From IMG/VR virus record IMGVR_UViG_2718217785_000001: a DNA stretch of 40,734 nt, one strand, 5' to 3'. The DNA is from a virus (lineage: Duplodnaviria > Heunggongvirae > Uroviricota > Caudoviricetes). Under the pieces are notes generated by a model, which made no database searches, was not told the origin of the DNA, and saw only the letters and a program-made list of their open reading frames with translations. A program made the position numbers and the translations under genes. This document shows, piece by piece, positions 2,071-40,734 of this stretch (the stretch's first letter is position 1; each line of letters starts with the position of its first letter).

Positions 2071-3461
2071 GCTATACCTCTCTTTTTCATGGCATCGAGC
2101 AGGATGTCCTGCACTGTTCGTTTTGAGTTGCGCCGCTCCATCACCATTTCGTCCATAGTGTCGGCAGCAATAATGTGGTGAATAAATACCGGACGATTGT
2201 GTCCGGCCTGTATCTGTCTGGTTGGGCCGATACGTTCAATAATTTGCTGATACTGCTCCAGGTCCCACCAATGTGAGAAAAATACCAGTATGTTTCCGCC
2301 GTCCTGCATGTTCAGACCGTGGCCCGCGCTGGCTGGGTGTGCAAAGAGAACAGGAATCTTTCCGGAATTCCAGTCACGTAGTGTCTGTGGATCCTGGTCG
2401 AGGTGACGACCGCGAGGAAATGCTTTAAGCAAGCGTTCAAGATCGTGTTTCCAGTGATAAGCAACCAGCACAGGTGCGCCAGCTGCTTCGGTCAGTATGC
2501 TGTCCAGCGCCTGTAGTTTGGTGTCATGCAGTTCTGACCAACTTCCGGTGTCATCTGTGTATACTGCGCCGCTGGCGATTTGCAGACACTTCAGTGTCTT
2601 TGCCGCGGCGTTTGGTGCTTCGATGCCTTCGCCATTCAGCTCGAGGAACATTTCCTTTTCCATTTCACGATACTGCTGACGGGCCTTCGGCGGCATATCC
2701 ACGCGGATTACGTTATGGATGGGGTCTTTGATATCGAACCAGTCGGTCGCATCCAGCGAGAGGGTCACATCGGCTAACGCTCGCTGTATTTCACCCTGTG
2801 AGTGAGCAAAAGGCTCCAGTTTGGTCCAGCTCTGCCCCGGAAACTGTATCGATTTGAACCAGCGTGAGGTAAACGCGCCGTAAGTGCGCCCGAGACGTTG
2901 CCCCAGGTCCACAAACCACGATTGTCCCCACAAATCTACCAGGCCGTTCGGTGCTGGCGTACCGGTGAGATTTATCCAGCGCCGGACATACTTGTGCGCC
3001 ACTTTGCCCAGCGCCGCCGCGCGCTTACCACCACCTCGCAGCCGGAAGGATTTTAGCCGGGTGCTTTCATCTGGAATGACAGTACCGAACGGCCATCGTT
3101 CTCCCAATTCCTCAACCAGCCAGACAAGGTTATCGTAGTTGATGGTGAACACGCTCGCGTTGTTGTTCGCCAACGCTGCAGAGCGCGCTTTGGCATTACC
3201 AACAATTGATTGTACCTCGATATTGCGCAAATGCCCCCACTTCAGTGCTTCATCCGGCCATGTGCTGGCAGCCACGCGCAGCGGCGCGAGAACCAGCGCA
3301 GGTTGTGTTTCTGCACCCGCCATGAAGAGGTCTTCCAGCGTAGTGAGTGTCGCTACGGTTTTACCCATTCCCATACCCGCCCAGATGTTGCCGCGCAGAA
3401 TGTTAGTTTGGTGATTGATTATGAGGTTTTGATAAATTCTGGGGTGGAATATGCTATTCAT
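2067..3461 (-). CDS. SNF2-family helicase/ATPase (phage replication module)
   Basis: Walker A GMGMGKT, DEST motif II, C-terminal helicase motif ERIGPTRQIQAG. Confidence 0.85.
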   Translation of the reverse strand: MNSIFHPRIYQNLIINHQTNILRGNIWAGMGMGKTVATLTTLEDLFMAGAETQPALVLAPLRVAASTWPDEALKWGHLRNIEVQSIVGNAKARSAALANNNASVFTINYDNLVWLVEELGERWPFGTVIPDESTRLKSFRLRGGGKRAAALGKVAHKYVRRWINLTGTPAPNGLVDLWGQSWFVDLGQRLGRTYGAFTSRWFKSIQFPGQSWTKLEPFAHSQGEIQRALADVTLSLDATDWFDIKDPIHNVIRVDMPPKARQQYREMEKEMFLELNGEGIEAPNAAAKTLKCLQIASGAVYTDDTGSWSELHDTKLQALDSILTEAAGAPVLVAYHWKHDLERLLKAFPRGRHLDQDPQTLRDWNSGKIPVLFAHPASAGHGLNMQDGGNILVFFSHWWDLEQYQQIIERIGPTRQIQAGHNRPVFIHHIIAADTMDEMVMERRNSKRTVQDILLDAMKKRGIA

Positions 3462-3534
3462 TAATACACCTATGGTAGAATATGGTCACTTCTCTCTCTC
3501 TATATATATATATATATAACTAACGGAGGCGGGT

Positions 3535-4332
3535 ATGCCCCTGGCGAAAATATTTACAAAGCAAGTTTCTTTATTAACTATGTTTTCAGCGTTAGCTTAT
3601 GCGATGGCATATTATTTTCAGAAAGGTGTCGCATCGTATTATGGCTATCCAGACCTTTTTATTAAAATAGACTTAAATACGCTATTGTATTCGGCTGTGT
3701 GGCTTTTGTTTTTTAGTTTTTTATTTCTCGGCGCCTTATATGCGGCGTTGATGTTTGATTTGAAAGGAAAATATTATGTTCCATTTATTGTATTTATAGT
3801 TGTTATGCTAATGGCTAATATTTGTATAATAGGATTTCATTGGCCTTTTGGTTATTTCTCCGAAACTTCTGTGATGAGTGTTCAGGATATTTTATTATTT
3901 GCTATGCTTTTGTTGAATTATCACAATGTGGTGTCTATGCCAATCCATAGTAAGAGACACGAACATCATATGGAGAGCATTAGAAAATTTGGGAGGCTTG
4001 CAGAGTATAAGAACGTATTTTATTATATCGATTTAAAAATCCTAAAGTCAGCTTTTCCTTTAGGGGTGATAACGTTGTTGATATTGAGCTATACATTCGG
4101 GAAGGTTACTGCATTTAAAAATAACGAATATTATATGGTAGATGGTAGTAATACTAAAGTGTTGCTCAATTCATTTGGTAGTGGTTTTGTTGTTGGTGAT
4201 TGTGAGTCAAATAGCGCAAAATTTGAATTTGTTAATGATTTAAAAGGGATGAGATTCACAATTATGTCCTCTAAAAAGGAAATAGCTAAATTAAAAGAGT
4301 GTTTCGAAATACGTGTTAAAAATACGGATTAA
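3535..4332 (+). CDS. Low-GC moron encoding integral membrane protein (about 4 N-terminal TM helices plus C-terminal soluble domain), unknown function
   Basis: 265 aa ORF, strongly AT-rich codon usage, opposite strand to flanking replication genes, RBS GGAGG at 3525-3529, hydrophobic N-terminal segments. Confidence 0.6.
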   Translation: MPLAKIFTKQVSLLTMFSALAYAMAYYFQKGVASYYGYPDLFIKIDLNTLLYSAVWLLFFSFLFLGALYAALMFDLKGKYYVPFIVFIVVMLMANICIIGFHWPFGYFSETSVMSVQDILLFAMLLLNYHNVVSMPIHSKRHEHHMESIRKFGRLAEYKNVFYYIDLKILKSAFPLGVITLLILSYTFGKVTAFKNNEYYMVDGSNTKVLLNSFGSGFVVGDCESNSAKFEFVNDLKGMRFTIMSSKKEIAKLKECFEIRVKNTD

Positions 4333-4344
4333 AGCATAAGTCTT

Positions 4345-4632
4345 TTATCCTTTATTGCGGCTTAAAATAATGGCTTCCAGATTTTTGCTATCCAGCACCA
4401 CTACGGTAAAGCCCAGCGCGCGCAACCGTCCGTGTTCGCGCAACTGGTCAGGCCGTGGTGGCTTGCCGGGGGATTTACATTCAACGAAAATGATACGACC
4501 GCCGGGTAGCAGAACAATGCGATCTGGTACCGAGCGGCGACCGGGGGATACGAACTTAAAGGCAACCCCGCCAGCCTTTTTTACTTCAGCGACGAGGTGC
4601 TTTTCGATTAGGTTTTCACGTTCATAGGCCAT
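4345..4632 (-). CDS. VRR-NUC domain nuclease
   Basis: 95 aa with PD-(D/E)xK-like D...ECK motif (PDRIVLL...IIFVECKSPG) typical of VRR-NUC. Confidence 0.75.
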   Translation of the reverse strand: MAYERENLIEKHLVAEVKKAGGVAFKFVSPGRRSVPDRIVLLPGGRIIFVECKSPGKPPRPDQLREHGRLRALGFTVVVLDSKNLEAIILSRNKG

Positions 4633-4826
4633 TAGCTTTCGCCTTCCTGCTTTTTGCGTTTCTTCATGCAGATAGCGCAGTTCTCAGGATGGTCATGCCA
4701 TTCATCAATCCTGATACCTATGAACATCCATTTTCCGCATAGTGATATGGCTTCCCCCGAATTAAAGAAATGTGCTTTTTTTGACAGAGCGGGGAACCCC
4801 CAACCCTTATTATCGATATTAGACAT
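4632..4826 (-). CDS. Small Cys/His-containing hypothetical protein
   Basis: 64 aa ORF tightly coupled to the VRR-NUC gene; contains C-x12-H-x-H-x3-C-x2-C pattern; no family recognised. Confidence 0.4.
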   Translation of the reverse strand: MSNIDNKGWGFPALSKKAHFFNSGEAISLCGKWMFIGIRIDEWHDHPENCAICMKKRKKQEGES

Positions 4827-4862
4827 CGTCCACCTCCTTACGCTTTTCGCGCATGTTCTGCA

Positions 4863-4997
4863 TCAGACAAAAATCAAACCGACGTTCGCTTTGGCCCAGA
4901 CCTGCATCGCCCGGTCGTACCCGCCGGACTGTTCAAGGTGCAAAGCCTCCCGCACAGTCCGGTAATAAAGCGGACTGTCCCGGTATTTAAATGACAT
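4863..4997 (-). CDS. Possible 44 aa small ORF (MSFKYRDSPLYYRTVREALHLEQSGGYDRAMQVWAKANVGLIFV), unknown function
   Basis: ATG-initiated ORF in otherwise noncoding gap, found by manual translation; below the ORF-track length cutoff. Confidence 0.25.
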   Translation of the reverse strand: MSFKYRDSPLYYRTVREALHLEQSGGYDRAMQVWAKANVGLIFV

Positions 4998-5011
4998 AGG
5001 GTTTTTATTCC

Positions 5012-5060: not shown

Positions 5061-5822
5061 TTACGAGGAAGCGTTAGCTATTTGAGCTTGTGTAAATTCG
5101 AAACCAGAATTTTGTAACCGTTGCACTAGACGAGGAACTGTTTCACGTACATGGTCGTTGAAATTCAGATACAAAATCCCGTTAGCATCAGAAGGCTGTT
5201 CTAGGTGCTGTTTCTGAAGGATTGCTACATTGCTGCGCCCTAAGGACGAAAGAAGCATACCCATCTCGAGTACAACGTTCTGTCTTGCGCGGGGTTGGAT
5301 TTCTGCTTCACCGGCGCGCTTTGAGTATCCCATATCATCAGGTGTCAAAAGAACAATCCCGAAACGGGTAGCAGTTTGTCCTTGCCCAATTTCACGTTCA
5401 AGCTCTTCAATAATGGTGAGTCCAGTCCCTCCCGTATTCTGCAAAATGAAATGGTCTGGTAATCCAAGTTTATGAAGGATTAGCTCAAGTTGCTCCTTTG
5501 CAGTATGGTCATGGCCGTGAACAATGAATATCTTTTTGGGGAGCTCAGATGGCTGTTCTACGGCTAGTGGTGTTGCCGTGGGCGGCGTTCCTAAATGGGT
5601 CATTATTGCAGTTTCAACATTGGGACGTTCTTGAGGGTTACCTTGAAACTGAATGGTCCGGGTGGTGTAAAGGTTAACAATTACGCCATTCGTTAAACGA
5701 TAGCAGTCACAAGTCTCACGCTGTTCGTGGGAAAAATTGGTGAACCCACACTCCCCCAAAAAGTCAGGAAAAGATTCTCTCGGGTATGGATAGGTGATCG
5801 GCATTTCAGTTAGTTCCTGCAT
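5061..5822 (-). CDS. Protein with C-terminal TIR-like (COG4271-type) nucleotide-binding domain and unassigned N-terminal domain; candidate defence or abortive-infection effector
   Basis: 253 aa; C-terminal motifs KIFIVHGHD, VLLTPDD, RARQNVVLEMG resemble TIR-like/SLOG-type domains from memory; GC lower than flanking pol gene; own terminator. Confidence 0.5.
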   Translation of the reverse strand: MQELTEMPITYPYPRESFPDFLGECGFTNFSHEQRETCDCYRLTNGVIVNLYTTRTIQFQGNPQERPNVETAIMTHLGTPPTATPLAVEQPSELPKKIFIVHGHDHTAKEQLELILHKLGLPDHFILQNTGGTGLTIIEELEREIGQGQTATRFGIVLLTPDDMGYSKRAGEAEIQPRARQNVVLEMGMLLSSLGRSNVAILQKQHLEQPSDANGILYLNFNDHVRETVPRLVQRLQNSGFEFTQAQIANASS

Positions 5823-8006: not shown

Positions 8007-8276
8007 GTGTTTAGCTTTGGTATCGGAATACTTTCATTGATAGGTATTATTGCTTTCCCCATTCTTTATATTTTAGGGAGAATAGTTCGGGCTGGTGGCG
8101 CATGGCTCGAACGTGAAGAAGGTCCTAAGGATCGTGTTCTTCCCAAAATTATAATTTTTGCGCTTATTGGGTTCTTTCTTGGGTGTTTGGCTCAGCCTGT
8201 ATGGGACAGCATTTCGGCATGTAGAGACTATGGCAATCCAATAGGGAAATGTCTTTTTAAATTCAATGAATTTTAA
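8007..8276 (+). CDS. Low-GC moron encoding small membrane protein (2 TM), GTG start
   Basis: 89 aa, GTG start with RBS AAGGAG at 7995-8000, opposite strand to replication genes, AT-rich, hydrophobic segments. Confidence 0.5.
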   Translation: MFSFGIGILSLIGIIAFPILYILGRIVRAGGAWLEREEGPKDRVLPKIIIFALIGFFLGCLAQPVWDSISACRDYGNPIGKCLFKFNEF

Positions 8277-8343
8277 TTTTTAGTATTGCGGTAGGCTGGT
8301 TTGGATAACTATTTTCTTAAGCCAGCCTTTGTTATAAGAAATA

Positions 8344-8982
8344 TTAAGCATCTACCCCTTCGTCAGAAGGGAGGCCGATCATTTCGTTGAGAGTTTCGCG
8401 TCGTATAGCTGGCGGAAGCGGAGCAGATGGTGCATCGGCTGGCAGAAGTTCTTTAGCTTCAGGCCACTCTTCCAGCAGGCGCTTAACTGTGCGCACTTTA
8501 CTGAGTGCAGCGCTGACATTCTGTCGAATGTCTGACTCATCGCTCTGTATCTGCTCATAAAGTGCATCAAACCCGTAAAACTCTGTAACTAGAGGGTCAT
8601 TTGCCAGAAGGGTAAATTCCCCCGGCGCGATTTTGTGAATATGGTCTGGTGACCCTGATTCATATCCTCGATAGTTACCGTTGAAATAGACGGTAACCCG
8701 AGAACCTGCCAGATTCAGACACATGTAACACTCTTTCCTGATAATATTATTGGCGGTTTTTAATGCTTCGGGGAATTTTGATACCAGTGTTTCTATTTTT
8801 TTTATAATTTTTAATATTTCAGCTTCTTTCTCTACGCCCCCGATAGCTGCAAGCCGAACACGTTCGGCCCATTCAACACGAGCAGCTCGTAGTGCTGATT
8901 TACGTTTGGGGATACCCGCTTTCTCAAGTGCGTTATTGATGATTTGAGTTTTAAGGTGATTAGTTAATACGGGCTGTGACAT
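8344..8982 (-). CDS. Hypothetical phage protein (replication module); ORF could start 15 nt upstream at 8997
   Basis: ORF with RBS GAGGGAAAG ahead of internal ATG (MSQPVL); no family recognised. Confidence 0.55.
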   Translation of the reverse strand: MSQPVLTNHLKTQIINNALEKAGIPKRKSALRAARVEWAERVRLAAIGGVEKEAEILKIIKKIETLVSKFPEALKTANNIIRKECYMCLNLAGSRVTVYFNGNYRGYESGSPDHIHKIAPGEFTLLANDPLVTEFYGFDALYEQIQSDESDIRQNVSAALSKVRTVKRLLEEWPEAKELLPADAPSAPLPPAIRRETLNEMIGLPSDEGVDA

Positions 8983-9034
8983 TATTCTTTCCCTCATGAG
9001 ATACCCCCAGCACGTAGCTGGGGGATGAATATTT

Positions 9035-9583
9035 TTAAATTAGTGCTTCAGCATCAGCACCTTCGCTGATATCGTCGAAATCGTCAGCGCTTGCCACTCC
9101 GCCGCCAGCGAATGCATCGCCGTCTCGCAGGAACTGGACTCCGCCGAGTGAGGCATTAATGCGTTTACCGAAATTATTGTCCTGTGCCCAGATATCGATA
9201 ACGGCGTTTACATAGCACCCTGCATAGGGACGTCCGTCAGCCTGAATAAGTGGCGAACGATCGCGATCAAGAACAGCTGGGCGCGCTTTGTTAGCAGCAT
9301 TCAGGAAGAAATTACCGGGGAAGCCTTCATACTCTGCTTTTTCATCACCATCATGCAGGCACAGATTGAGTTTTTTCTCCAGCTGGTTATAAATGGGCTC
9401 CCACTTCTCTCCCCATTTTTCCTTCGCTACCTGCTTCATAGCTTTACGGATTTCTTCCAGTTGTGGGTGTTTGGGTGACATTAAAAATACTGCGGAGAAA
9501 CGTGGATCGCCTTCGCCGTTTACAGTTTTAGCTTCAAACAGAGACGGGAAGGCCAGACGAACATTGTTCAGCTTCAGTTTCAT
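9035..9583 (-). CDS. DUF2815-like phage protein (putative ssDNA-binding)
   Basis: 182 aa, N-terminal MKLKLNNVRLAFP and acidic C-terminal tail typical of DUF2815 proteins that accompany Pol A in this module type. Confidence 0.65.
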   Translation of the reverse strand: MKLKLNNVRLAFPSLFEAKTVNGEGDPRFSAVFLMSPKHPQLEEIRKAMKQVAKEKWGEKWEPIYNQLEKKLNLCLHDGDEKAEYEGFPGNFFLNAANKARPAVLDRDRSPLIQADGRPYAGCYVNAVIDIWAQDNNFGKRINASLGGVQFLRDGDAFAGGGVASADDFDDISEGADAEALI

Positions 9584-9598
9584 GGGTATTTCCTTAAA

Positions 9599-10900
9599 TC
9601 AGATGAGGTCTGCGGTTAGCGTATCGTCGGATACGTCGTCGAAATCATTTATAGGGTTGATATTGAGTGCGGGGCGTGGGTCTGACTCGGGAACGACGGT
9701 GGGTTTACCATCAGCTCGTGTTATCAGTGCCTCGACTTTTGACCAACGGCGCGGACTGGCCTTTTTGATAAGTTTTTCGGCTTTTGTGGGGCTAATAAGT
9801 TTAAAGTCGAATACTTCTTCAGTTTTGTACCTGAACTGGTCCTTCAGAAGTGCGCGAGCTGCCTCTTCATCACTCCAGGCCCGGTTACCTTGTTTTCCTG
9901 TTACCAGTTTAAACCCCGGTACCGGATGTCCGGCATTGAGTTCATTGTGAACCCGGTCTCGTACTGCCTTTAGCCAGGATTCAATAAAGTCGGCCTGGCT
10001 ATAGATCTCCGCAAGCTGCTCAATGGTTAACAGAGGTACACGTGCGCTGGCATTGGTGATTATTTCGCTGACAGGCTTTGTCAGATCTTCAAAATCGCTG
10101 GCCGCTGTTTGTAAATGCTGCATTTTCTGGGCAGTGCAAATAGCTTTTGCTTTACAGAAGCGGCACTGTTTTTCTCCAGGTATGAAGTTTTCCAGCGGTA
10201 GTGTCTCAATGCCTTCGCATTCAGCAATATTGAGAACAAGGATCGCACTGGTTGCGGCCTCCTGTGCCCGTTCACCGAAAGACTGAAGTTCCTGTACGGT
10301 TAACGACCATTCTGAAACGTGGTTGAGCCTTGGCTGGTGAATAAATAATCTTACAGTCTCAAAGTCATACAGCATGCTGAATTGTTCGAGTGCACCCAGG
10401 GCATACAGTTGTAGTTGCTCATTTTGTTCTGCATCAATGCGGACGCCTTTGCCATATTTCAGGTCGTGGATTTGTAATTCGTTACCAGCGATGATTATGC
10501 CGTCGGCAGTTCCGAAAGATTCTTCCACACCCGTTATATGTGAGAAATCAACACGTTGTTCAACCAATAGTTCATTATTCTGTGCAAGAGTCCAGACCGT
10601 ATCAACATACCGGCCAACGGCTTCGACCATTTCATCATCCACCTGTGGGCCAGATGTATCATCAGGATTTTCGCGAAGGGGGTATGAGCCGAGAAACATA
10701 GAAACATTGCATCCGGCGTAGTGTTCCGGGTGGCTTTGCCTGTTTCGTAGAACTTTTTCAGCAAGCGCGTGCGCTGCAGTGCCCTCGATTGCAAAAGTTG
10801 TTTCTTTATCCGGTTGTGTGGCCTCCAGCGCCAGACTTCCTGGGCAGCGCATCCATCGATGCGCTGATGATGGAGAAAGTTGTGCGTGAACGTCTGGCAT
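9599..10900 (-). CDS. DUF2800 / Cas4-like PD-(D/E)xK nuclease with Fe-S Cys cluster
   Basis: 433 aa; N-terminal Cys (RWMRCPGS), D-x-K motif [10 protein letters not shown]-terminal C-x2-C-x5-C ([13 protein letters not shown]). Confidence 0.75.
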
Positions 10901-37042: not shown

Positions 37043-37705
37043 ATGCATCGTATAGACACGAAAACCGCGCAGAAGGATAAGTTCGGCGCGGGTAAGAACG
37101 GTTTTACCCGTGGTAACCCCCAGACCGGCACGCCTGCCACCGATCTGGATGATGACTACTTTGACATGTTGCAGGAGGAGCTTTGCAGCGTTGTGGAGGC
37201 ATCCGGTGCCAGCCTGGAGAAGGGGCGGCATGACCAGCTGCTTACCGCGCTTCGTGCGCTGCTGTTAAGCCGCAAGAATCCGTTTGGCGATATCAAATCG
37301 GATGGCACGGTGAAAACAGCTCTCGAAAACCTTGGTTTGGGAGAAGCGGCGAAACGAAATGTGGGAACAGGGGAAAATCAGATACCGGACATGGCCTCTT
37401 TTGCCAGTGGTGATGGATGGATGAAATTACCCAACGGGAAAATCCTGCAATATGGTCGTGGGCGTGTGTCTCCTACGCTTGCGAGTCAGACACTACGGGT
37501 AGAATTTAATATACCTTTCCCTAAAAAAGCTGATATTGCCTTGCTTTCACATTCTGGTGATGGTGGTTCAACTGCCGGGAGTGGTCGTGGTTTTATGATG
37601 ACAACTGAAGAGCCAGGGTTAACAGGGTTTTATTCTGCCTTTAGAACAACCTCGACAAGTCCAACTGTTACCATGAATTACTGTTGGTGGGCTGTTGGCG
37701 AGTAA
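37043..37705 (+). CDS. Tail fibre protein: constant N-terminus (res 1-104) fused to variable C-terminus inside invertible segment
   Basis: 220 aa; N-terminus [21 protein letters not shown] typical of e14/Mu-type fibres; crossover site within LGLGEAAK coding region. Confidence 0.75.
37320..37350. other. Left crossover site of invertible segment (hix/gix-like)
   Basis: TTGGTTTGGGAGAAGCGGC at 37332-37350 is the exact reverse complement of 38917-38935; imperfect palindromic half-sites AAACC/GGTTT. Confidence 0.65.
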
Positions 37706-37725
37706 TTTTATTCAGGGTGATTTAT

Positions 37726-38169
37726 ATGAACAAATATGTTTATAGTGCCAGACATAATGCTTTTTTCCCTGTGGATATGATTGATAAATATAAATCAGAG
37801 GGATGGGATTTATCAGATGTGAAAGAAGTGAATCAAAATATTGTCAGTGAGTTTATGGCTGAACCGCCACAAGGAAAAGTCCGTATTGCCGGAGATGATG
37901 CGCTGCCTGCGTGGGCTGATATTCCTCCACCCACGCATGAAGAGCTTATTGAAATTACTGAATCAGAAAGACAGCTACTAATTAACCAGGCCAACGAATA
38001 CATGAACAGTAAACAATGGCCCGGTAAAGCCGCTATTGGTCGTCTGAAAGGTGACGAACTGGCGCAATATAATTTGTGGCTGGATTATCTGGACGCACTG
38101 GAACTGGTTGATACTTCCGGTGCGCCAGATATTGAATGGCCTACGCCTCCGGCTGTTCAGGCCAGATGA
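37726..38169 (+). CDS. Tail fibre assembly protein (Tfa), active orientation
   Basis: Conserved Tfa core (LPAWADIPPPTHEE), directly after fibre gene. Confidence 0.7.
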   Translation: MNKYVYSARHNAFFPVDMIDKYKSEGWDLSDVKEVNQNIVSEFMAEPPQGKVRIAGDDALPAWADIPPPTHEELIEITESERQLLINQANEYMNSKQWPGKAAIGRLKGDELAQYNLWLDYLDALELVDTSGAPDIEWPTPPAVQAR

Positions 38170-38557
38170 CATCAGGGGCCGTTGACGTATCGACGGCTTT
38201 CACCGCTTTTTTATGCGCCATCCACTCAGACAATTTCGCTTTATCCTCGTCACTTATATCGCCGAGCATTAATTCAACCCGCCAGTCGGCGGTTACTTCG
38301 TCAATCTGCTGTAGCCGTTGCTGGCGATATTGTTCTGCCGCCGCTATTTGCTCTTCATGCGTTGGAGGCGGCGCATCGACCCAAGCGGGCAGTCCAGTGC
38401 TATCTGCACCAAGCATTTTACCTTCAGGCCAGGCAATACCAGCAAATTGGTTGTAGAGGTTAACACTGATTTCAATAGCTGATTCAGGAATAAACCTGCT
38501 TTCAGGTTCAATATAAAATCCGTTATCAACGGCGTCATAAAAGTATCTTGTTTTCAT
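38141..38557 (-). CDS. Tail fibre assembly protein (Tfa), alternative cassette
   Basis: Same Tfa core (LPAWVDAPPPTHEEQ) on the opposite strand, convergent with the first. Confidence 0.7.
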   Translation of the reverse strand: MKTRYFYDAVDNGFYIEPESRFIPESAIEISVNLYNQFAGIAWPEGKMLGADSTGLPAWVDAPPPTHEEQIAAAEQYRQQRLQQIDEVTADWRVELMLGDISDEDKAKLSEWMAHKKAVKAVDTSTAPDVIWPEQPEA

Positions 38558-38558
38558 G

Positions 38559-38935
38559 TTAATAACCTATTGCGAATAAACAACCGGCAGCTGAAGCACC
38601 CGCCCATGAAGTCCCATTAGTTGTTCTTAAAACACGAACTTTGACTGTCGTTCTGGTAGAGCCACCAATATCGAAGCCCCACGTTGTGCCGGCCGATCCA
38701 TTCCACGAGCTAGCAGAAGCACCTGAGTCAATCGCAGTGGCATGAAACAGAGCGTTAGGAAATGCCATAGGTAATGTCACGGTTGCTACTCCAGTCGAAT
38801 CGGAAAGAAATCCAGAGACCCACTGGAAAATGATATTTTGTTCAACCCCACCAATTAAAGCCGGGATCAATATTCTCCCGGTATTACCCGTTACCCCTAC
38901 AGCAGCGCCAAGTTTTGCCGCTTCTCCCAAACCAA
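38559..38935 (-). CDS. Alternative tail fibre C-terminal cassette (silent in present orientation)
   Basis: Minus-strand ORF sharing GLGEAAK junction with the + strand fibre, lacks its own constant N-terminus. Confidence 0.65.
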
Positions 38936-38947
38936 CGTTTATGAAAA
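38917..38947. other. Right crossover site of invertible segment (TTCTCCCAAACCAACGTTTATGAAAA)
   Basis: 26 bp hix-like imperfect palindrome; inverted copy of left site. Confidence 0.65.
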
Positions 38948-39001
38948 TGCAGAAATAACGAGCAAATGGCATCATTCCTGCTTTTGTCAGGGAGATCTAC
39001 C

Positions 39002-39316
39002 ATGCTTATTGGCTATGTACGTGTGTCAACAAATGACCAGAACACCGATCTGCAACGTAATGCACTGAACTGCGCGGGATGTGAGCGGATTTTTGAGGAT
39101 ACAATCAGTGGCACTAAGTCCGACAGACCAGGGCTGAAAAAACTGCTCAGGACATTATCGGCAGGTGACACTCTGGTTGTCTGGAAGCTGGATCGGCTGG
39201 GGCGCAGTATGCGGCATCTTGTCGTGCTGGTGGAGGAGTTGCGCGAACAAGGTGTTAACTTTAGTAGTTATGTTATTACAGGTGGGGGATTTCTCCCCCT
39301 TATGCAGATTTTCTAG
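39002..39316 (+). pseudogene. pin: Pin/Gin/Hin-family serine DNA invertase, truncated after about residue 85
   Basis: N-terminus MLIGYVRVSTNDQNTDLQRNAL...TLVVWKLDRLGRS matches Pin-type resolvase domain; homology stops near 39262 and ORF ends in unrelated low-GC sequence. Confidence 0.7.
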
Positions 39317-39320
39317 TTAA

Positions 39321-40166
39321 CTATTGGCGAAGTGGCCATATTTTTCTGTTTTTTAAAAAACTATCTCCAACTATATAACTGCAACAATGTTCACTAAGGC
39401 CATAAAAACTAATTATTCCATATTTATGAGAAGCTATATCAGACAGTTCTGCTAATACTGTGGCAAGCCAACGAGCGATGCTAAGAGAATAGAATCTTCC
39501 CCATTTTTGAACAATGGTATTTTGTCCAGTACGGATGGAGGCTGATATAAGGTCTTGCATCATGTTGGTACTTTCATTCATATACATGATCGTTGTATAC
39601 GGCGAAAGAGTGGCATTGATAAACCTAGCATTTTCTTCAACACGTCTTTGTTCAACTGTATAATAATAATGTTTTTCAAGGATACTCTCGGCTACTTCTC
39701 CCCACCATTTATTAATAGGTTCATTATTGGTTAAATTGGGGCTGCTTAATGAAGAGAAATTTGCGTAACGTCCCCGTCGGGCATCAGCAAAGGAATCTAA
39801 ACATTCAAGTATTTTGTAGGTGATTTTATGTGTAGGACGTGAATATCTCAGAGATAGTTGCATTTTTTTAGAAATACTATCAACCTCGTTGGTTAATTCA
39901 ATGAGCTTATGTCCAAATTTTCTTACAATATTCTCGTCAGGCATTTTTCCTTTATGTTCAATGGCATAGTGTGCAACAAGTATTAGTTTAGCAAGTCTCT
40001 CAAAACCTACAGAAAGCCCAAAAAATGCAGTGTAATACTCACCTATTTTGTCTGCATAATTGGCTTTACCTATGGCTGTTGCCCCAGAACCAATGAGCTG
40101 TGTAACTAAAGATGCTTCTCGGCCCAGAGCGTGCCATGCTGGAATATCCCAGGGATTTTTATTCAC
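39321..40166 (-). CDS. Low-GC cargo gene, unknown function, at the invertase-distal hotspot; candidate defence gene
   Basis: 281 aa ORF, AT-rich, occupies the position where e14 carries mcrA; no recognised motifs. Confidence 0.6.
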   Translation of the reverse strand: MNKNPWDIPAWHALGREASLVTQLIGSGATAIGKANYADKIGEYYTAFFGLSVGFERLAKLILVAHYAIEHKGKMPDENIVRKFGHKLIELTNEVDSISKKMQLSLRYSRPTHKITYKILECLDSFADARRGRYANFSSLSSPNLTNNEPINKWWGEVAESILEKHYYYTVEQRRVEENARFINATLSPYTTIMYMNESTNMMQDLISASIRTGQNTIVQKWGRFYSLSIARWLATVLAELSDIASHKYGIISFYGLSEHCCSYIVGDSFLKNRKIWPLRQ

Positions 40167-40293
40167 TTTATTATTTTCCTTTGCTCATAAATTTAAATTG
40201 TTTGAGTATCTCATAAAATATAAGGAGGTGGTTAAGGTTGTTGATCGCATATAATAGCTATTGAAAGTCAAGAACTCGGTTTTATGTTCTACC

Positions 40294-40334
40294 ACTAATT
40301 AATATATTGTGAATCTTACAATATATTAATTAGT
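40294..40334. repeat. Perfect 17 bp inverted repeat with 7 bp spacer (ACTAATTAATATATTGT ... ACAATATATTAATTAGT)
   Basis: Read directly from sequence in the gap between the two cargo ORFs. Confidence 0.65.
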
Positions 40335-40467
40335 ATGATCAAACCAGCCATCAACTGATTCCTTGTATCTTTCAGAGTCTCCAGAATAAAAGCCTTAACG
40401 AATTCCTTATTTGTGAGTGCCTTACAAAAAGCCCATTGTTGCAGGGAACGAGTATAAAACTCGTCAG

Positions 40468-40734
40468 CTACTGGAGAAGGCTACCTGAACTTCGATCTAT
40501 TCCTGCATCCATATAGTTGATGGTCTTCTGGAGCTCTTCGATTAGGGCAACAGCTTTTGCTCGAGAAATGCATATTAGGTGATCCGGAAATTCTTGTAAG
40601 GGCCAGTTTGGTATACAGGCCATGTTATCAGTGAAGGATGCAGACAAGTAAACTTCATTGGTAACCAGAGAATAGCTTACCTCAAAATTGGTGAGCTCCG
40701 GCAAACTGCTAACGTTTGACTCTTTTCTGCGCAT
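40468..40734 (-). CDS. Hypothetical cargo protein; start at window edge, may extend beyond
   Basis: 88 aa minus-strand ORF ending at 40468, low GC, upstream of the 281 aa cargo gene on the same strand. Confidence 0.4.
   Translation of the reverse strand: MRRKESNVSSLPELTNFEVSYSLVTNEVYLSASFTDNMACIPNWPLQEFPDHLICISRAKAVALIEELQKTINYMDAGIDRSSGSLLQ

Follow-up and report, generated by a model that had tools for sequence, protein, structure and literature searches.

Genome comparisons indicate inversion of a prophage tail-fibre segment after truncation of the adjoining pin invertase gene

Introduction

Can a prophage tail-fibre switch go on inverting once the invertase gene beside it has been truncated? 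The question is raised by an open reading frame (ORF) near the right end of a Caudoviricetes prophage, where an initial annotation described a serine invertase that had been truncated by a cargo insertion and had lost its helix-turn-helix (HTH) DNA-binding domain, next to intact crossover sites and fibre cassettes, and suggested that the host-range switch may be locked unless another invertase acts in trans. We refer to the whole stretch of DNA analysed here, 40,734 nucleotides in length, as the window, and to the truncated gene as pin'. Taken as a whole, we regard as highly probable an explanation in which a cassette swap killed pin and the fibre segment is flipped by an invertase acting in trans on retained cis elements.

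Results

The window holds an apparently complete prophage in yfhL

The window is 100% identical to the chromosome of Escherichia coli strain C11 (NZ_CP010133.1), in which yfhL borders the prophage on the left and yfhH on the right. The att core is a direct repeat of 18 bp, TTCACACATATCACAATT, with one copy within the 5' end of yfhL and the other 100 bp short of yfhH; the two copies fall at about 214-231 of the window and at 40940, just past the window end (L001 14041-14058). The prophage encodes a tyrosine integrase, replication and lysis genes, an HK97-type head, and a contractile tail of the Mu/SfV type, with the tail end ordered ymfQ, fibre, tfa, tfa', fibre', and recombinase. We therefore describe the window as an apparently complete SfV/e14-like prophage with a Mu-type tail, integrated in the 5' end of yfhL, with the pin' locus in the right arm of the prophage, adjoining attR.

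Two other features of this prophage are recorded here. The phage end gives YfhL a new start and new first residues, MSLLITKR..., where the K-12 protein presumably starts MALLITKK.... In the prophage early region, a TIR-domain protein (window 5061-5822, minus strand) matches PADLOC PDC-S35 (E 2e-108), a candidate single-gene defence system, and its gene lies beside genes for a family-A-like DNA polymerase, DUF2800/DUF2815, VRR-NUC, and Nmad5.

pin' encodes the first 89 residues of a Pin/Gin-type invertase

The ORF is composed of two parts:

39002..39268, plus strand: pseudogene pin', codons 1-89 of a Pin/Gin-type serine invertase (Pfam, DNA homology, Gin alignment, RefSeq)
39269..39316, plus strand: 15 foreign codons and a stop added to pin' by the adjoining cassette (alignment with intact pinE and DEC5B)

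Counted from the conserved MLIGY start, ORF 39002-39316 (plus strand) encodes 104 aa; the 116 aa given previously were counted from an upstream ATG at 38966. The product keeps the catalytic Ser9, within VSTNDQ, and the DRLGRS motif. Residues 3-89 match Pfam Resolvase (PF00239; E 1e-30) over positions 2-98 of the 145 in the profile; no HTH family in Pfam matches the ORF. Alignment with Mu Gin (4M6F/3UJ3, 193 aa) is limited to residues 1-89 at ~80% identity, which upholds the truncation, and homology to Gin and PinE alike stops at residue 89 of 184-193, a few residues past the divergence point of about residue 85 first proposed. Since the Pfam match and the Gin/PinE homology end before it, pin' lacks the E-helix, the oligomerisation helix at about residues 100-135; in all, 54% of the invertase protein is missing. 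The initial annotation was right in what it took to be kept and lost, the resolvase domain and the HTH, respectively.

The DNA tells the same story. Homology with other pin loci begins at the right crossover site described below, continues to 39268 at about 90-93% identity with many intact pinE genes, and falls to noise within one codon at 39268/39269; the RefSeq label for 39002-39268 is a recombinase pseudogene "missing C-terminus." A tblastn search with intact PinE from the junction to host yfhH found nothing past residue ~89, i.e., no pin 3' remnant. A sequencing frameshift hiding a full-length invertase is ruled out, since homology stops cleanly at 39268 and the same junction recurs in 44 of 5426 complete E. 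coli genomes, each an independent record. The pin' pseudogene is the only invertase gene beside the invertible segment, and a cognate functional invertase is absent there.

pin was truncated by a two-sided cassette replacement

The right end of the prophage beyond pin' contains the following features:

39269..40452: replacement cargo cassette of 1184 bp, 36% GC, carrying orf281 (both breakpoints relative to DEC5B; drop in GC)
39284..39299, minus strand: GC-rich hairpin GGGGGA-TTTC-TCCCCC, 22 nt downstream of the orf281 stop (fold z-score)
39321..40166, minus strand: orf281, cargo gene encoding an uncharacterised conserved all-alpha protein with a putative HEPN-like fold
40468..40734, minus strand: orf88, conserved small gene adjoining attR and common to prophages with different cargo (phrog_17793, unknown function, E 2e-44)

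The same yfhL att site is occupied in strain DEC5B (O55:H7) by a related prophage whose pinE, 555 bp long, is intact and is followed by orf215 (minus strand), orf88, and attR. The window is homologous to DEC5B from 38921 to 39268 and then again from 40453, which lies 15 bp past the orf88 stop, such that window 39269-40452 stands in for 1060 bp of DEC5B, comprising the last 288 bp of pin and orf215. As judged from these breakpoints, the event is a two-sided cassette replacement with deletion, one boundary of which lies inside pin. A simple insertion splitting pin was considered and rejected on the same DEC5B comparison and because no pin 3' remnant is present up to yfhH. The "cargo insertion" of the earlier description is therefore correct in that AT-rich cargo adjoins the truncated pin, but the cargo came by replacement with deletion.

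The slot between pin and orf88 is variable: it holds orf281 here and a 215-aa coiled-coil-like gene in DEC5B and IAI1, with an additional acyltransferase in IAI1 (compared over window 39269-40452, L011 (DEC5B) 3940-5000, and L008 (IAI1) 2400-5000). The attR-proximal region is matched in 159 genomes, and about 115 further genomes have the orf88-attR part only. The locus thus marks a variable cargo slot adjoining attR.

Some prophages that carry the junction, mostly in ST38-like strains, differ in their baseplate module, which is of the DUF2612 type, and the pin' alleles of the lineages differ at 23-39 of 267 nt. These differences are unevenly placed. Between the C11 and ST38 types, 20 of 23 fall within nt 45-132, a stretch that is 9-15% different between lineages, and nt 133-315 together with orf281 are nearly identical; the foreign tail (39269-39316) shows 0 differences in most junction-bearing loci and one in locus L009. 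Comparison of window 39002-39268 with L003, L009, and L010 thus shows mosaic alleles and places a recombination breakpoint within pin'. Because the alleles diverge in nt 45-132 and yet nearly match from nt 133 onward and through the cargo, the alignments indicate, as the simplest reading, that pin was truncated once and that homologous recombination in the 5' part of pin' afterwards spread the truncated form. On the same simplest reading, recombination in pin' would have joined the same right end to different tail modules. Among individual loci, the pin' stop codon is mutated in L009 and residue 2 is altered in L010 (strain 14EC029); R-to-C and M-to-V changes are also present across the lineages.

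The cargo gene orf281 has no match in Pfam, PADLOC, PHROGs, or NCBIfam, and a Foldseek search of the PDB found nothing. It belongs to a well-conserved family of about 280 aa distributed across Proteobacteria (485 matches). In two of four genomic contexts examined, the orf281 homologue lies directly after hsdM-hsdS-hsdR or between hsdS and hsdR; the other two place it beside umuDC and beside an IS110 element. An alignment of 32 sequences reveals invariant columns that include E56, R57, H86, R133, R212, R224, and R232, with no pair among the invariant columns corresponding to the Rx4-6H catalytic motif of HEPN RNases; the sole such string in orf281 is R107..H113, the His of which is not conserved. 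A role as a defence gene is plausible but unproven, and the putative HEPN-like fold and the relatives in type I restriction-modification operons make orf281 a reasonable candidate for anti-phage testing.

The hairpin is present with the sequence and coordinates (39284-39299) previously given, but it sits 16 nt inside the foreign cassette rather than on the junction. Relative to shuffled sequence, it folds with a z-score of -2.7 for the minus strand and -0.7 for the plus strand; as it lacks a T run, it went uncalled in a terminator scan. On the grounds of the minus-strand fold and a location past the orf281 stop, we set aside a junction or recombination signal; the hairpin is probably a 3' stem-loop of the orf281 transcript. 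At the other end of orf281, the 300-bp spacer that separates it from orf88 contains a perfect 17-bp AT-rich palindrome (window 40294-40334; ACTAATTAATATATTGT, 7-nt spacer, ACAATATATTAATTAGT) that overlaps promoter-like hexamers on both strands and may be an operator.

The crossover sites and both fibre cassettes are intact

The invertible segment lies immediately upstream of pin':

37043..37705, plus strand: tail-fibre gene in its current orientation, 220-aa ORF with a Gp53-like_C domain
37320..37345: left 26-bp crossover site, reverse complement TTCTCCCAAACC-AA-GGTTTTCGAGAG (inverted repeat; 26-mer also in intact-pinE prophages)
37726..38169, plus strand: tail-fibre assembly gene of the expressed cassette (Caudo_TAP, E 3e-30; RefSeq tail fiber assembly protein)
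38141..38557, minus strand: tail-fibre assembly gene of the silent cassette (Caudo_TAP, E 4e-32)
38559..38934, minus strand: silent alternative fibre C-terminal part without its own promoter or start (Gp53-like_C; joined to the constant part in C10)
38922..38947: right 26-bp crossover site, TTCTCCCAAACC-AA-CGTTTATGAAAA (inverted repeat; in-silico inversion; intact-pinE prophages)

The constant 5' part of the fibre gene (37043-37332) is outside the segment, and two mirror-image fibre 3' parts with their assembly genes are inside it, the variable part in use spanning 37333-37705. The two crossover sites are inverted relative to one another, share a matching central TT/AA, and overlap a 29-nt inverted repeat that is 93% complementary (37327-37355/38912-38940); they are identical to sites found beside intact pinE in other prophages. 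In C11, both cassettes are open, each with a fibre C-terminal part and a Caudo_TAP assembly gene, and fusion to the constant part gives fibres of 220 and 221 aa. The statement that both the sites and the cassettes are intact is thus fully borne out.

The segment has inverted in lineages with a truncated pin

E. coli C10 carries the C11 prophage with flanks that are 99.98% identical and the fibre segment inverted. When 37333-38934 is inverted in silico at the central dinucleotides, the 2274 bp of 37043-39316 match C10 without a single mismatch, and the resulting fibre is an open 221-aa frame identical to the C10 protein. The same relationship is found in the ST38-type prophage, also with a truncated pin', where the flanks of WP3-W18-ESBL-08 and 22AR0747 (the L003/L004 pair) are 100% identical and the segment of one is the exact inverse of the other; among 21 genomes with an identical ST38-type prophage, 18 are oriented one way and three the other. 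The truncation is older than the split of the lineages, and the inversions therefore came after it. On this comparison, which reads inversion from differences between the genomes of strains as opposed to reads of one culture, a precise inversion is shown to have occurred after truncation, and a locked fibre switch is not supported for this prophage.

That the switch is nevertheless locked, with the segment frozen as in the window and the silent cassette decaying, strikes us as improbable. The loss of 54% of the protein from pin' would be in keeping with it, and a second chromosomal pin 3' half is missing in 16 of 18 ST38-type genomes of orientation A, where the segment may indeed be frozen. 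Strain 14EC029 goes further: its pin'-orf281 junction and cargo are 100% identical to C11, but the right crossover site is lost and a gene in the former segment is frameshifted (L010 2396-3734), and switch decay therefore does happen in some hosts. Against a general lock, however, the C10/C11 and L003/L004 pairs each differ by an exact inversion between flanks that are 99.98-100% identical, with the truncation being older; both cassettes remain open in C11; and C11 has another pin 3' half (see below).

Inversion could in principle come about without an invertase, by RecA-dependent homologous recombination between the short inverted repeats, which over 29 nt at 93% complementarity would yield a product that looks like site-specific inversion. 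We consider this very unlikely. The repeats coincide with canonical Pin crossover sites identical to those of intact systems, the inversion arose independently in two lineages, and the enrichment of an extra pin with the minority orientation (2/3 versus 2/18, suggestive only) points the same way. Furthermore, imperfect repeats of 20-29 bp are at or below the usual minimum length for efficient RecA recombination.

An invertase acting in trans is the favoured driver

A chimeric query (orf281 plus the pin 3' half), read by counting extra places, revealed one additional pin 3'-half match on the chromosome of C11 and one on that of C10, and the extra pin is accordingly defined by the presence of a 3'-half match rather than by coordinates. 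In the ST38-type set, an extra chromosomal pin 3' half is found in two of three minority-orientation genomes versus two of 18 majority-orientation genomes, counts that come from the chromosomes of a small, clonal set with few independent lineages; strain 1296KP has the minority orientation, and its chromosome lacks a further pin 3' half. The link between orientation and an extra pin is no more than suggestive, and the pattern is what one would expect if the switch needed another invertase in order to run. Together, inversion despite pin', the extra pin 3' half in C11 and C10, and the identity of the crossover sites favour the alternative that had been held open from the outset, namely another invertase acting in trans.

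Such an enzyme would act on cis elements that include one more candidate:

39023..39086: presumed recombinational enhancer, placed by two Fis-core-like 15-mers and homology with Hin

The Hin enhancer is situated about 100 bp from hix, in the part of the gene that encodes the N terminus (PMC2724282, PMC3798978). The two 15-mers in pin' (39023-39037 and 39072-39086) are about 96 and 145 bp from the center of the right crossover site, and the second (39072-39086) is the only one that fits the strict Fis-core pattern. pin' thus retains the homologous position with a geometry that matches Hin, and we infer that its 5' fragment carries a presumed Fis-dependent enhancer.

In the mechanism that we propose, a single ancestral illegitimate recombination would have swapped the moron slot between pin and orf88 for the AT-rich orf281 cassette, and the same exchange would have taken the last 288 bp of pin, which encode β-4, the E-helix, and the HTH DNA-binding domain. 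pin' would then be a dead pseudogene that leaves in place the right crossover site upstream and the presumed enhancer in its first ~90 bp. As these cis elements are intact and the sites identical to PinE-type sites, an outside Pin-family invertase should therefore be able to flip the segment: made elsewhere in the cell, it would bind both sites and, once an invertasome had formed at the enhancer, invert the 1.6-kb stretch. Switching of host range would then rely on resident invertases; it would work with another pin and be frozen without one. The truncation, the replacement, the common junction, and a precise inversion that postdates the truncation are shown by the data; which enzyme acts in trans, and that the retained stretch works as an enhancer, are inferences. 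A more speculative proposal, which we put forward tentatively and think doubtful, is that the 5' stump of pin has been kept for its enhancer and crossover site, with the invertase given up for HEPN-like defence cargo and the switch run on the invertases of co-resident prophages; if true, the switch would be active or frozen according to the prophage complement of the host, as the 2/3 versus 2/18 imbalance in extra pin 3' halves hints.

An active or regulatory 104-aa product, e.g., a dominant-negative subunit or half of a split invertase, would accord with an ORF that is open in all loci examined and that keeps Ser9 and DRLGRS, but we give it almost no credence, as the product lacks the E-helix that forms the dimer/tetramer interface as well as the DNA-binding domain, no second half is encoded nearby (tblastn to yfhH), and the stop codon and residue 2 vary across lineages that also show the R-to-C and M-to-V changes.

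Phage records vB_EcoM-606R2, vB_EcoM-611R5, and vB_EcoM-683R1 were considered as inducible phages with pin' and rejected. These "complete phage genomes" resemble prophage predictions with host flanks (ON470588.1 (L005) 8106-10359); they contain host yfhH, pgpC, and tadA, therefore represent prophage regions, and are not used as evidence here.

Discussion

These findings leave the current understanding of serine invertases unchanged, but they show that a pseudogenised invertase is not to be equated with a dead phase-variation switch. Tail-fibre switching of this prophage probably depends on the other prophages of the host, and annotation pipelines and host-range predictions should seek the cis sites and the invertases encoded elsewhere in the genome.

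The closest known case is prophage Phi4 of E. coli EC958, where PacBio reads captured both orientations of a tail-fibre segment that adjoins an invertase without an HTH (Forde et al. 2014, PMC4134206), the inversion being ascribed by those authors to the invertase of another prophage acting in trans. The two loci share an HTH-less invertase, intact crossover sites, mirror-image fibre cassettes, and inversion. Phi4 is, however, a different prophage, with crossover sequences TTATCGAATACCTC-GGTTTACAGGAA and a 3.1-kb segment, and the truncations are therefore independent events of the same kind. The nature of the evidence is also distinct, as mixed reads within one culture document inversion in Phi4, whereas an exact inversion between near-identical genomes does so here. 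Likewise, the cause of truncation is dissected here and was not analysed in the Phi4 study.

The right arm also has the gene order of e14, namely ymfQ, stf, tfa, tfa', stf', pin, cargo, and attR. The crossover core TTCTCCCAAACCAA of the e14 P segment is common to e14 and this prophage. PinQ of prophage Qin inverts the P segment (Kirigo et al. 2025, PMC12529663), so that in e14 inversion can be performed by an enzyme from a different prophage; the moron there, mcrA, comes after pinE (PMC12529663; van de Putte et al. 1984). In e14, however, pinE is intact, whereas here the cargo swap took 54% of the gene; action in trans is therefore obligatory rather than additional.

More broadly, the layout, with a pair of 26-bp sites and an invertase gene whose 5' coding region contains an enhancer (presumed in the case of pin'), is that of the Mu G segment (gin, mom) and of Hin/Fis. 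Unlike Mu, this prophage is integrase-based rather than transposable and does not encode a functional recombinase of this type. It is well established that Gin, Cin, Pin, and Hin can stand in for one another (references in PMC12529663 and PMC4134206). A fibre segment that goes on inverting next to a truncated invertase is already known from EC958 Phi4, and the prophage described here is a further example, to which our comparison adds the anatomy of a two-sided replacement, its apparent spread by recombination within pin', and between-genome evidence of precise inversion after truncation.
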